In this document: one piece after another, positions 7,959-57,575 of the stretch
Position numbering within the stretch: position 1 is the stretch's first letter
How the letters are laid out: the number at the start of each line of letters is the position of its first letter
Assembly: GCA_951406725.2 (NCBI GenBank)
Contig: OX597831.1
Location: 9,114,001 to 9,178,000, forward strand
Length of the DNA stretch: 64,000 nt
Direction: 5' to 3'
Origin: Octopus vulgaris
Taxonomy: Eukaryota
Program-made: the position numbers and the translations under genes
Notes under the pieces: model-generated
What the model was told of the DNA's origin: nothing
What the model saw: the letters and a program-made list of their open reading frames with translations, nothing else
Database searches by the model: none

Positions 7959-8703
7959 GAAAAAAGAGAAAATAGATAGAAGAAGAATGAGAAAAAAATT
8001 TTGTAGATTATGTATCTAAGTGTGTGTGTCTTTGTGACTGTGTTTGTATCCCGCTATAGCTTCACAACTACTGCGGATGTGTTTGCGTCCACGTAACATC
8101 ACGGTTCGGCAAAAGATTACGATAGATTAAGAGGCTGGATTAAAAATACTGGCCTCCATTAGTTTCCACTAAAATTCTTCGAGGCGATACTCCAGCATGA
8201 TCACATCCTAGGAACTACGTTAAGGGGTCGCATGTCTGAGCAGTACTCAGCCACTTTTCTTTTATCCTTTTACTCTTTTACTTGTTTTAGTCACTTGATA
8301 CGGCCATGCTGGAGCGCTGCCTTTAGTCGAGCAACTCGATCCCAGTACTATTCTTTGTAAGCCTAGTACTTGTTCTATCGGTCACTTCTGCCGAACCGCT
8401 AAGTTACGGGAACAAACAACATCGGTTGTCAAGCGATGGTGGGGGACAAATAGACACACACACGCATATGTGTGTGTGTGTATCTGAGCATACATATATA
8501 AAGCCGTTAAGTGGATACGTAAGTCGACTCTAGAAAGACAAATTCAGTCCCAGATATCCTAAGTATATATATTTGAATATATCAACAATAAAGGAACGGC
8601 CATAATAGGCCATTCACCCACTAGAAATAACAGCCAAAGCTTCAACCGCAAATAAAAGTTAATTCAGTAAACCAGGAGAAAATTTAAAAACATTTACCCT
8701 GTA

Positions 8704-8810
8704 ATTTCTTATACGGTATACCGTTTCATCTGCTGATTAATGGTAAACTAACCTGATTAAATTAAATCAAGCCAATCTTCCACAGGCTCTCAGATTCATC
8801 AGTAAGAAAT
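8704..8810 (-). ncRNA. Type I hammerhead ribozyme, monomer 1 (canonical core)
   Basis: Minus: ATTTCTTA-CTGATGA-ATCTG(58 nt)CAGAT-GAAACGG TATA CCGTA-TAAGAAAT; 8-bp stem I; GUA cleavage between 8712 and 8711. Confidence 0.92.
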
Positions 8811-9194
8811 AGCCCAAGACGGAACAGATATTTTCACGAGGCATTTCCGACGTTGCCAAGTTAATATCTGACCTAAAATTTTCAAATCGTCGCACTCGCG
8901 CCAAATTTATCGGCAGCAAATAAATATAAGCCGTCGATTCCATTACGGAATTAACCAGAAAATTCATAATTAATCAATATAGGGTGGCAAAAAAATTTTG
9001 TAGAATTCTTTTGCCACCAGCGGCCTAGTAGGAAAAAATTAAAATAGTCATAGACCATTTTTAAGTTCAACATCAACAATAAAGGAACGGCCATAATAGG
9101 CCATTCACCCACTAGAAATAACAGCCAAAGCTTCAACCGCAAATAAGAGTTAATTCAGTAAACCAGGAGAAAATTTAAAAACATTTACCCTGTA

Positions 9195-9301
9195 ATTTCT
9201 TATACGATATACCGTTTCATCTGCTGATTAATGGTAAACTAACCTGATTAAATTAAATCAAGCCAATCTTCCACAGGCTCTCAGATTCACCAGTAAGAAA
9301 T
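9195..9301 (-). ncRNA. Type I hammerhead, monomer 2 (core mutated to CUGGUGA)
   Basis: Same fold; T>C at 9290 gives A6G; stem III ACGGTATATCGT. Confidence 0.8.
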
Positions 9302-9686
9302 AGCCCAAGACGGAACAGATATTTTCACGAGGCATTTCCGACGTTGCCAAGTTAATATCTGACCTAAAATTTTCAAATCGTCGCACTCGCGCCAAATTTA
9401 TCGGCAGCAAATAAATATAAGCCGTCGATTCCATTACGGAATTAACCAGAAAATTCATAATTAATCAATATAGGGTGGCAAAAAAAATTTTGTAGAATTC
9501 TTTTGCCACCAGCGGCCTAGTAGGAAAAAATTAAAATAGTCATAGACCATTTTTAAGTTCAACATCAGCAATAAAGGAACGGCCATAATAGGCCATTCAC
9601 CCACTAGAAATAACAGCCAAAGCTTCAACCGCAAATAAAAGTTAATTCAGTAAACCAGGAGAAAATTTAAAAACATTTACCCTGTA

Positions 9687-9793
9687 ATTTCTTATACGAT
9701 ATACCGTTTCATCTGCTGATTAATGGTAAACTAACCTGATTAAATTAAATCAAGCCAATCTTCCACAGGCTCTCAGATTCATCAGTAAGAAAT
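9687..9793 (-). ncRNA. Type I hammerhead, monomer 3 (canonical core)
   Basis: Same fold; CTGATGA and GAAA intact; stem III carries a G-U pair. Confidence 0.9.
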
Positions 9794-10211
9794 AGCCCAA
9801 GACGGAACAGATATTTTCACGAGGCATTTCCGACGTTGCCAAGTTAATATCTGACCTAAAATTTTCAAATCGTCGCACTCGCGCCAAATTTATCGGCAGC
9901 AAATAAATATAAGCCGTCGATTCCATTACGGAATGTTTTTAAATGTTTTTAAATTTTCTCCTGGTTTACTGAATTAACTTTTATTTGCGGTTGAAGCTTT
10001 GGCTGTTATTTCTAGTGGGTGAATGGCCTATTATGGCCGTTCCTTTATTGTTGATGTTGAACTTAAAAATGGTCTATGACTATTTTAATTTTTCCTACTA
10101 GGCCGCTGGTGGCAAAAGAATTCTACAAAATTTTTTTTGCCACCCTATATTGATTAAATATATTTGAATATACACATACATATATAAATGCGCGCGCGCA
10201 CACACACACAC

Positions 10212-10902: not shown

Positions 10903-10908
<6 letters not shown>

Positions 10909-12558
10909 TTCCTAAAACGATCTTGTGCTGGTCCATTTGTATTAGCTGTTAAGGCGAGGGCATCATCTTTGTAGATGGCGAAATGTACGTTAGGGAATGT
11001 CTTACCGAAGGTATCTAGGAGAAAGAGTCCAATTAGATCACAGATGCCTGCCCCATCATATGAACCCATGCTCACATCGAAAGCGCCCTCCGTGTCGGTG
11101 TTTTTTACCCACTTTGCATTCTCACTGAAAAGTAATGTCTTTCTAGCATGGAAGATTATATCCTTATCATTGGTACTAATTTCTATGAAGTCACTAGCGA
11201 AGATTAGGGCTTTATCTAGCAGTTCTTTAGAGATAGAGGCATAAAAATCAACAATATCGAATTTACATAATATTGAGGTCTCTTTCTTTCTTTTGTTATC
11301 TTACCGTTTTATCAATAAATCACCTCCCGGACGACGTTATCCTCAACTAAGAGCTAATACGACCTTTTTGGGATTATCGCCTAACATCGGTTGAGGACTC
11401 TCACAAACAAAAGAATCTAATATGGACGCATATCACATAGATTATTCTATGAAAAATATACCGATCCCATCAAAGGATTTTTACTCTAAGAAACTTCTGC
11501 AAGAAATTACTGATGTAATTAAGCGTATGAGATGGAAGGCTTTCTTTTTTGACACAGAAGCGAACACCAAGGAAAACATTTTCTATCGGATAAAATCCAA
11601 AAATTCCCTCCTAGGATTAAAGGCTTGGAAGATTTCGAAGCGGACCTGCTGAAGATCATGAGCAAAATAAAGTTTCGTAAGTCTTTTAACAATTTCCAAC
11701 ATAAATTGAAAAAAGATATTGATCATATAAAATGCTCCAAGAAAAAAGCACTTTTTTCGGATAAAACCAAGAACTTATACCTGGTAGATAAGAGCAAATA
11801 CACACAACCCTTACACAACAGCATTACTAATAATTATACTAAGGCTAGGGCACAGACATATAACGAAATTAATAAAGAAGTTAGCGTCATCGCCGCTAAA
11901 CTTAAATTAGATAAAAAAATAGAAACCCTCCCCCAAAAAGAGGCCTTTATTACTATTAAAGATCAAAAAGAAAACTTCCTTTCCAACCCTAAATGTAGGC
12001 TTATCAACCCAGCCAAGTCAGAACTAGGGATTATTAGCAAAGAAATTTTAGATAAAATAAATACGAAAATTAAGACCGATACTAGGCTAGTGCAATGGTC
12101 CAATAGTATAGAAGTCGTAGAGTGGTTTAAAGCTATTAAGAATAAGAAAAAAGCGAGGTTTACACAATTCGATATTGTTGATTTTTATGCCTCTATCTCT
12201 AAAGAACTGCTAGATAAAGCCCTAATCTTCGCTAGTGACTTCATAGAAATTAGTACCAATGATAAGGATATAATCTTCCATGCTAGAAAGACATTACTTT
12301 TCAGTGAGAATGCAAAGTGGGTAAAAAACACCGACACGGAGGGCGCTTTCGATGTGAGCATGGGTTCATATGATGGGGCAGGCATCTGTGATCTAATTGG
12401 ACTCTTTCTCCTAGATACCTTCGGTAAGACATTCCCTAACGTACATTTCGCCATCTACAAAGATGATGCCCTCGCCTTAACAGCTAATACAAATGGACCA
12501 GCACAAGATCGTTTTAGGAAGGATATTATCCAGTTAATGAAACACTTCGGACTTAGTA

Positions 12559-12562
<4 letters not shown>
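10903..12562 (+). mobile_element. Penelope-like element, 3'-truncated, with inverted terminal duplication, in (TA)n
   Basis: 10903-11263 is the reverse complement of 12166-12526; 36-nt tail 12527-12562; (TA)n on both sides. Confidence 0.9.
11422..12562 (+). pseudogene. PLE reverse transcriptase (N-terminus to YKDD), one frameshift near 11610
   Basis: YSMKNIPIPS..KRMRWKAFFF / SDKTKNLY..AFITIKDQKENF..PKCRLINPAKSELG..QFDIVDFYASI..FDVSMGSYDGAGICDLIG..YKDD; Naiad-like by motif. Confidence 0.9.
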
Positions 12563-12602
<40 letters not shown>

Positions 12603-15618: not shown

Positions 15619-16197
15619 CGAGTCAAGTGCTTGTGATGGTGTGCGCGAGTCAAGTGCTTGTGATGGTGTGCGCGAGTCAAGTGCTTGTGATGGTGTGCGC
15701 GAGTCAAGTGCTTGTGATGGCGTGCGCGAGTCAAGTGCTTGTGATGGTGTGCGCGAGTCAAGTGCTTGTGATGGTGTGCGCGAGTCAAGTGCTTGTGATG
15801 GTGTGCGCGAGTCAAGTGCTTGTGATGGCGTGCGCGAGTCAAGTGCTTGTGATGGTGTGCGCGAGTCAAGTGCTTGTGATGGTGTGCGCGAGTCAAGTGC
15901 TTGTGATGGTGTGCGCGAGTCAAGTGCTTGTGATGGCGTGCGCGAGTCAAGTGCTTGTGATGGTGTGCGCGAGTCAAGTGCTTGTGATGGTGTGCGCGAG
16001 TCAAGTGCTTGTGATGGTGTGCGCGAGTCAAGTACTTGTGATGGTGTGCGCGAGTCAAGTGCTTGTGATGGTGTGCGCGAGTCAAGTGCTTGTGATGGTG
16101 TGCGCGAGTCAAGTGCTTGTGATGGTGTGCGCGAGTCAAGTGCTTGTGATGGTGTGCGCGAGTCAAGTGCTTGTGATGGCGTGCGCGAGTCAAGTGC
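15619..16197. repeat. 27-bp minisatellite, ~21 near-perfect copies
   Basis: Unit GAGTCAAGTGCTTGTGATGG(T/C)GTGCGC, head-to-tail with no spacers. Confidence 0.97.
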
Positions 16198-56969: not shown

Positions 56970-57059
<90 letters not shown>

Positions 57060-57210
57060 GTGAAATAGAAAGATGAATAATCTTGTTGCAGATTAATCAA
57101 AAGTTTAACCGATACCTTGGTAGCAAAAATCACAGCAGAAGAAAGCACGGTTGGAGGTACAACCATATGGTGTTGCAACCGTGCGTTGGTGCGGATAATT
57201 GAATTTTAAT

Positions 57211-57575
57211 ATTATTAGTGAATTGAAGAAATGGAGTTGAACGAAGATTGAACAGAAATCCTTTTATTGCATTCTACACGTGTTTCGAAAGCCACAATTT
57301 ACCAAATTCCGATTGAATAAGGAGACCATATTGTGGCTTTCTCTTTTGGCCATGGGCTCTTAGGAGCCTCCTCGTTCGATTTGTTTTGCTGCGCCTCTGT
57401 TCTGTTTTTGTTTTGCCAACGGAATTCCTATTTCTTCCTGAAGAGAAAGACACAATATGGTCTCCTTATTCAATCGGAATTTGGTAAATTGTGGCTTTCG
57501 AAACACGTGTAGAATGCAATAAAAGGATTTCTGTTCAATCTTCGTTCAACTCCATTTCTTCAATTCACTAATAAT
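57211..57575. repeat. 135-bp inverted repeat (57211-57345 / 57441-57575) in a PLE terminal-repeat element
   Basis: Arms differ at one position that I could find; 95-bp spacer; element 57060-57575 is bounded by (TA)n. Confidence 0.92.
57435..57514 (+). ncRNA. Type I hammerhead ribozyme (canonical core)
   Basis: TTC-CTGAAGA-GAAAGACACAAT(..)ATTGTGGCTTTC-GAAAC ACGT GTA-GAA; cleavage after 57511. Confidence 0.85.

Follow-up and report, generated by a model that had tools for sequence, protein, structure and literature searches.

Animal retrozymes were defined, and their mobilisation by Penelope-like elements (PLEs) was proposed, by Cervera and de la Pena (2020, PMC7229834) and Li et al. (2026, bioRxiv 10.64898/2026.07.22.740005), and the accessible portions of both sources give a unit range of 150-450 bp. 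Insertions of PLEs are described in the available parts of PMC8557442 and PMC3846280 as an inverted, 5'-truncated copy arranged head-to-head with a one-sided tail of 30-40 bp; these features are explained there either by resolution through the endonuclease or by an antisense template that primes itself. In vitro, a PLE protein that is predicted to be dimeric cuts both target strands and extends them from two internal RNA sites (PMC11167929, accessible sections); the start site has no strand preference, the hammerhead is dispensable and no RNA reads end at the cut. As outlined in the available part of PMC2837659, L1 twin priming involves a second primer that anneals inside the template, and the two resulting pieces lie on either side of an internal deletion. 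The tandem and inverted insertions and the one-sided tail of PLEs, the role of the hammerhead and the mobilisation of retrozymes are stated to be open questions in the accessible text of PMC8557442, PMC11167929, PMC7229834 and bioRxiv 10.64898/2026.07.22.740005.

The window analysed here is a stretch of 64,000 nucleotides of Octopus vulgaris DNA (GCA_951406725.2, contig OX597831.1, positions 9,114,001 to 9,178,000 of the forward strand). It contains a real, young hammerhead-retrozyme insertion with PLE-type architecture. With the animal non-LTR retrozymes it shares the dispersed, non-coding tandem units of low GC, each with a type I hammerhead, as well as a TSD of more than 4 bp and the lack of LTR, PBS, PPT and poly(A) (ends judged by eye). 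However, the octopus unit is 492 bp long and its stem II region spans ~68 nt. With PLE insertions, as far as the accessible parts of PMC8557442, PMC3846280 and PMC11167929 describe them, it has in common the head-to-head inverted copy, a TSD round the whole, a one-sided extension and partial tandems. Like the Hydra-clade PLEs it targets (TA)n, and it has two internal RT start sites as reported for a PLE in vitro (PMC11167929, accessible sections). Unlike PLEs, the retrozyme has no ORF and neither RT nor GIY-YIG, and is thus non-autonomous; its tail is ~105 nt long instead of 30-40, and both arms may be multi-unit. L1 twin or dual priming (PMC2837659, available part) is similar in that both target strands prime, two inverted pieces lie within one TSD and the inner junction has microhomology, whereas the retrozyme lacks poly(A), uses a fixed second site, has arms with overlapping template sequence and is inverted as a rule.

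No mention of head-to-head arms, of fixed asymmetric ends or of (TA)n targeting was found in the accessible text of the retrozyme literature (PMC7229834; bioRxiv 10.64898/2026.07.22.740005). In that of the PLE literature (PMC8557442, PMC3846280, PMC11167929), three further features did not come up, namely the pairing of two different end classes (55 to 0), the run-off at the ribozyme cut and the coupled behaviour of the arms. The accessible literature yielded no octopus retrozyme, no inverted two-arm retrozyme inserts and no coupled two-site priming. The shape of the insert is already known for PLEs, and its interest lies in the statistics of the family, which suggest that one RNA is primed at two fixed sites.

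Organization of the insert in the window

Features of the insert and of its neighbourhood are listed in Table 1. Unit positions are counted from the first base past the predicted hammerhead cut.

Table 1. Features of the retrozyme insert and the neighbouring element (window coordinates).
Feature	Coordinates	Strand	Description
Left TSD	8567..8581	+	15 bp, ATATATTTGAATATA; last base 8581 is also the first base of arm A
Arm A (direct array)	8581..9934	-	2.75 tandem units, ribozyme sense; outer (3') end at unit 131, inner end at unit 253
Hammerhead copy 1	8704..8810	-	type I, CUGAUGA...GAAA, long stem II; predicted cut after GUA between 8712/8711
Hammerhead copy 2	9195..9301	-	single-copy core change CUGGUGA at 9290; predicted cut before 9202
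Hammerhead copy 3	9687..9793	-	predicted cut between 9695/9694
Head-to-head junction	9932..9951	+	3-nt overlap and templated 10-nt duplication (AATGTTTTTA x2)
Arm B (inverted part)	9940..10157	+	218 bp; unit positions 16 to ~234; ribozyme sense outward
Right TSD	10158..10172	+	15 bp, ATATATTTGAATATA
Neighbouring insert	10903..12566	.	head-to-head fragment of a young Hydra-type PLE between two (TA)n runs

A preliminary description of this DNA had read the insert, in order, as TSD, 218-bp inverted part, direct array and TSD, and every coordinate of that reading was reproduced. The 15-mer ATATATTTGAATATA occurs exactly twice in the whole window, as the two TSDs; among random pairs of 30-nt segments drawn from the window, a word of at least 14 nt was common to both members in 57 of 20000 draws, 21 of these outside microsatellites. 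Because base 8581 is counted in both the TSD and arm A, the TSD is 14-15 bp long. Since the left flank occurs only once in the genome, there is no paralogous empty site. The TSD can be read at all because a G or C lies close outside the 131 end, and the window copy is one of only four loci genome-wide in which this base is no more than 8 nt away.

Arm A is 1354 bp long with a period of 491/492 and ~99% identity between units, and arm B is a reverse match to 9187 -> 8970 of this array. Since the inner end of arm A at 9934 is equivalent to 8951, 18 template nucleotides (8952-8969) are absent from both arms. The tandem doubling of AATGTTTTTA at the junction combines 3 nt of overlap with the direct arm and a short templated re-copy, and no poly(A) is present in the insert. 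The 18-nt separation, the junction duplication and the lack of poly(A) had been described earlier and were all found again. Arm B starts 15 nt past the predicted cut, which confirms the template start proposed before, and it ends at the second fixed site, thereby carrying a 'tail' of ~105 nt that extends past site 131.

The hammerhead motif

Each unit, read on the minus strand, contains stem I (ATTTCTTA/TAAGAAAT), CUGAUGA, a long stem II, GAAA and stem III, with a predicted cut after GUA. The core is intact in two of the three window copies, and known core conservation suggests that copy 2 is probably inactive. The unconstrained MFE structure of the 107-nt motif at 8704-8810 (minus strand) is a type I hammerhead of -30.8 kcal/mol, and this shape was not adopted when the motif was folded with longer flanks. 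In Rfam, the Hammerhead_3 match of the motif is sub-threshold (27.2 vs 48.5 bits), and the window insert has no match at the gathering score. The miRNA and snoRNA matches that appeared in an Rfam scan by E-value were rejected as chance.

A 467-bp sister family, 67% identical, keeps the hammerhead core while its paired stems differ in sequence in a covarying manner. Among the variants of the family described below, none of the locus-wide ones falls on the 12 hammerhead core positions, where 4 of the 94 single-copy variants are located, although these are small numbers. At unit position 406, which corresponds to the variable core position N7 of the hammerhead, all four bases are seen as locus majority alleles.

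The retrozyme family in the genome

The genome searched comprises 2.8 Gb in 227 contigs, and a single 38-mer of the unit has 613 exact matches in it. A search with one unit gave 39 scored loci among 1002 first-look candidates, from which 38 were taken besides the window copy. As the scored loci favour long arrays, a separate unbiased set was drawn, consisting of all loci on contigs C1 and C2 with the exact 38-mer among the first 100 of the 613 matches. This set holds 38 loci, 34 of them new, which brings the total to 72 loci after removal of one duplicate. Left out were L046 as a duplicate of L045, L127 (contig C3) from the unbiased set, and matches below 90% identity. In counting variants, homopolymer sites, columns close to gaps and the terminal 12 nt of the arms were ignored.

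In 55 of the 72 loci, two arms are arranged head-to-head with one outer end at unit 124-134 and the other at 228-242. The outer end lies at exactly unit 131 in 57 ends over the 72 loci, and no locus of the 72 has the same class of end on both sides. The 17 loci that fall outside the two-end rule in automatic classing have one classified end or none, and inspection by eye reveals several short stubs, internal deletions or a foreign second arm among them. A (TA)4 run is present within 14 nt of 121 of the 126 classified ends. Because nearly all other copies lie inside (TA)n, the length of their TSD is unreadable; it was likewise ambiguous in three further loci with interrupted TA runs. No poly(A) was seen at any outer end inspected among the family loci. 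The copies are young, with single-copy variants at 0.12% per base, and the unit lacks coding capacity, its longest stop-free frames being 61 and 68 residues. The unit is also abundant in a DNA run (X5) of a second species (organism B).

Locus L031 (3240-4837) consists of a lone uninverted arm of 3.25 units, from unit 8 to 129, with the haplotype of the window copy and a TSD of 8-11 bp outside any microsatellite. A preference of this haplotype for targets other than (TA)n was ruled out, since L154 and L155 carry its marker inside (TA)n.

Inner ends and coupling of the two arms

That the template begins near the ribozyme cut had been proposed for the window copy, and in the family this is often so. 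In the unbiased set, 29 of 66 inner ends lie at -3 to +27 of the cut, against 4.7 expected from exposure (p = 2e-16). Stopping is concentrated at the first passage of the cut, where 27 of 58 arms of the unbiased set end, in contrast to 2 of 38 at later passages (Fisher, 9e-6); such a drop fits an endless template. The long-array set contains 12 stops at the third or a later cut passage, which is above background.

The two arms of a locus behave together. Of the unbiased loci, 12 have both arms ending at the first cut and 11 have both arms reading past it, with no mixed case (p = 7e-7), in a table that leaves out six loci with an arm ending early. Over the pooled 49 loci the corresponding counts are 12, 35 and 2, and in the two mixed loci, the window copy and L042, only one arm ends at the first cut and its partner continues beyond it. 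Arm lengths are uncorrelated in the 35 loci in which both arms pass (rho -0.06). At site 341 the two arms carry matching alleles in 29 of 29 loci (0.5 expected under independence); the same is true of 32 of 32 loci at site 406 and of 34 of 34 at site 152, and private locus-wide variants extend through both arms. Either arm may be the longer one (25 vs 30 of 55) and mirror inner ends occur at only six of 55 junctions, so neither arm was copied from the other. The fixed asymmetric ends, the target preference, the run-off at the cut, the coupling of arms and the shared alleles are demonstrated at the level of genomic sequence. The coupling could also come from source loci that differ in cleavage efficiency.

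In microhomology-mediated end joining, short overlaps and fillers are the expected pattern at junctions. Overlaps of 1-7 nt are found in 32 of the 55 two-hit junctions, and fillers of at least 14 nt in 10. The target-primed reverse transcription invoked in the preliminary description is supported, with priming from both target strands.

Nature of the template

Variants of the family fall into 94 single-copy, 44 locus-wide and only eight intermediate ones, and all differences between units inside the window copy are confined to single units. This distribution supports the earlier proposal that the array arrived in one event and not by local expansion. For a private variant to be fixed in all copies of a locus, the lineage must at some point have passed through a single unit, and a circle would supply such a bottleneck. 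Intermediate variants in alternate units occur in L065, L066 and L068, and also in L031; together with the later-cut stops of the long-array set, they are fitted better by linear multimers or multimeric circles than by a monomer circle. Circles and linear multimers are probably both in use as templates, and weakly cleaving source loci could mimic circles. A 523-nt contig from a run guessed to be RNA (X10) wraps round the unit and fits a circle, a tandem transcript or DNA alike. In the duplicated locus L045/L046 the arrays differ by ~1 unit, through local change or assembly variation, which suggests that the number of units is able to change in place.

For the window copy, it is possible that the template was a linear RNA of 3.2 units starting from a cut, that a circle was cut between the two RT events, or that one arm stopped by chance. 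The linear 3.2-unit template put forward earlier is geometrically possible for this copy, one of the two mixed loci among 49, and does not hold as a model of the family.

A candidate helper element and related families

The neighbouring insert in Table 1 is located 700 bp to the right of the retrozyme. It ends inside the RT frame at element positions 1535 and 1575, which are 40 nt apart, instead of the family norm of 261/328. Copies of this PLE family are many and 96-98% identical, and the inspected loci (L129-L147; for example L140, G000:C21:8153000-8162900) have a tandem period of 2590 bp with open frames of 717 residues. RWK, DKT and CxCX5C motifs and a C-terminal endonuclease were read by eye in this frame; the search for such proteins scored the best 120 of 9604 protein candidates. 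The Pfam match to GIY-YIG is below cutoff (16.1 bits, E 0.014), and Pfam detected no RT family in the 717-residue frame. With less than 3 kb, one ORF and a (TA)n target, the family agrees with the description of the Hydra clade in the accessible text of PMC8557442. The neighbouring RT had also been considered as Naiad, which the C-terminal position of the endonuclease rules out.

Of the 10 loci in which both ends can be seen, 7 have the paired ends at 261/328, the fragment in the window being one of the three atypical cases, and the one-sided extension of the PLE is 67 nt long. A short-stemmed motif resembling a hammerhead, with CCGAAGA as its core, was identified by eye ~40 and 110 nt upstream of the two end sites. 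No significant similarity was detected between the retrozyme and the resident Hydra-type PLE (best blastn E-value 2.2). It is plausible that this PLE acts as the helper of the retrozyme.

The 467-bp hammerhead family (L086-L110) is older and has 2553 candidates. Its ends are paired (119 with 204-208) in at least 8 of 24 distinct loci, and one of its inserts has the long end on both sides. Further hammerhead families, with stem II regions of ~57-58 nt, are represented by L097 and L103. Elsewhere in the window, positions 57057-57575 comprise a (TA)n run, a long arm with a one-sided extension of ~155 nt, an inverted 135-bp arm and another (TA)n run; the element has no blastn relation to the retrozyme or the PLE and constitutes a third family of the same architecture. 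The window also contains a clean tandem array of 21 copies of a 27-bp unit with 98% matches (15619-16197).

Alternative explanations

In L1-style twin priming on one linear multimer, the second primer would anneal at a chance internal site and two adjacent, non-overlapping pieces would result. The coordinates of the window copy fit this model, the copy is one of two mixed loci of 49, alleles are common to both arms, and the single uninverted arm of L031, which has the same haplotype, is 1598 nt long, near the 1590 nt reconstructed for the window copy. However, the second priming site is not variable but fixed at 228-242. If adjacency were the rule, the inner end of the direct arm should lie beside that site; a distance of no more than 20 nt is seen in 6 of 55 loci, compared with 4.6 by chance, and in 1 of 29 loci of the unbiased set. 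None of the 19 unbiased arm A inner ends outside the cut zone falls at 216-256. The long-array subset has a weak excess of adjacency (5 of 24, p = 0.04), and the other arm ends there equally often (5 of 28). Moreover, in 14 of the 55 inserts neither arm reaches the length of a unit and the two overlap on the template, and in 23 both exceed one unit; the sub-monomeric form is the commonest insert of the unbiased set (14 of 29 two-arm loci). Poly(A) priming is lacking, and a single transcript behind L031 and the window copy was rejected because they have no unit-specific variant in common. The 18-nt adjacency, taken in the preliminary description as the signature of twin priming, is therefore not a trait of the family, and L1-type twin priming, which fails as a family model, appears improbable.

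Dual priming by two separate RNAs, one per target strand and usually from the same expressed source locus, is an equally improbable account. It has already been proposed for L1 (accessible part of PMC2837659), and common alleles in both arms would be expected if most of the RNA came from a single locus. Two chimeric loci, in which the arms belong to different families, speak for it. In L117 (2989-3501), which is flanked by (TA)n runs, a retrozyme arm (131 to 207) lies head-to-head with a PLE arm (164 to 261), and in L053 (4527-5000) the second arm belongs to another hammerhead family while the retrozyme arm ends exactly at the cut. Such a shape can arise from two RNAs, or from a later deletion between neighbouring inserts. 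By itself, dual priming leaves the 55 asymmetric against 0 symmetric inserts unexplained, and the joint stopping and passing of arms (12/11/0) as well, unless the sources differ strongly in cleavage.

A fold-back origin, in which self-priming yields an inverted dimer and the endonuclease then cuts element DNA at fixed sites (PMC3846280, PMC8557442, available parts), would account for the six mirror-symmetric junctions, two of which are at natural hairpin loops (L032, L079), and both end sites are AT-rich, as is the target. The other 49 of the 55 junctions are without mirror symmetry, each arm can hold sequence that is missing from the other, and the inner ends coincide with the ribozyme cut of the sense strand, a pattern not predicted for an antisense template; we regard this origin as very unlikely. 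Later expansion of a short insert by local tandem growth, a model discussed in the accessible text of bioRxiv 10.64898/2026.07.22.740005, or an assembly artefact is more unlikely still. In its favour, the L045/L046 arrays differ in length, eight variants are intermediate and no piece from four runs compared with the left flank plus one unit (8100-9071) bridged the insertion point (all were contigs, and the family is high-copy). Against it, the variants are star-like, the minimal inserts hold only unit 1-238 and so could not give rise to a full unit, 55 independent loci and other families show the same arrangement of ends, and the TSD is non-repetitive.

Proposed mechanism

We consider it likely that the insert is a non-autonomous hammerhead retrozyme with a 492-nt unit that depends on a PLE for mobilisation in trans, the most likely helper being a Hydra-type element with (TA)n as its target. 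According to this proposal, tandem retrozyme copies would be transcribed and the hammerhead would cut the RNA into monomers, while some RNA would remain multimeric or circularise. The PLE endonuclease would nick both strands of an AT-rich target ~14-15 nt apart, and each nick would prime cDNA at its own fixed internal site of one RNA, at unit 131 and unit ~234-238, respectively. Each reverse transcription would then proceed towards the 5' end of the RNA; on a cleaved monomer it would run off at the cut, and on a continuous template it would continue for up to nine units. The 3' ends of the cDNAs may be trimmed and joined via microhomology or short templated filler, and gap filling would leave the order TSD, arm, inverted arm, TSD.

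This mechanism is supported by the 55 asymmetric inserts against none of the same class, the frequency of (TA)n ends, the run-off at the cut and the coupled arms. The paired ends of the PLE family itself and of the 467-bp family, and the join of a retrozyme arm with a PLE arm in L117, support it too, as does the in vitro cleavage and extension of both target strands by a PLE protein (PMC11167929, accessible sections). It is weakened by the window copy and L042, which break the coupling rule; by L117 and L053, whose arms come from different families, with L117 seeming to pair two cut-proximal sites; by the 17 of 72 loci outside the two-end rule in automatic classing; by the one insert of the 467-bp family with the long end twice; by the lack of sequence similarity between retrozyme and PLE; and by the in vitro results in the accessible sections of PMC11167929, where the strands do not differ in start site, the hammerhead is dispensable and no reads end at the cut.

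A more general reading is that PLEs always retrotranspose by a reaction that requires two primers on one RNA molecule, in which each strand primes once at its own fixed site and the hammerhead sets the state of the template in vivo. We give this reading an even chance. If it is true, a cleaved monomer would give a short inverted insert ending at the cut, and a circle would give tandem arrays, with independent length on both arms, in one step. One mechanism would then cover the inverted repeats of PLEs, their one-sided tail and the tandem arrays of retrozymes.

Significance

The retrozyme family offers a genomic record with countable predictions, namely two start sites used once each, run-off at the cut and arms that act together. 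The window copy matters because it is among the very few outside a pure (TA)n run, so that the stagger of the two nicks is readable. A 492-nt RNA, a young and apparently intact PLE frame of 717 residues and a known 15-bp target would make an in vitro test direct. If circles serve as templates of the long arrays, these arrays would be genomic evidence of rolling-circle reverse transcription in an animal.
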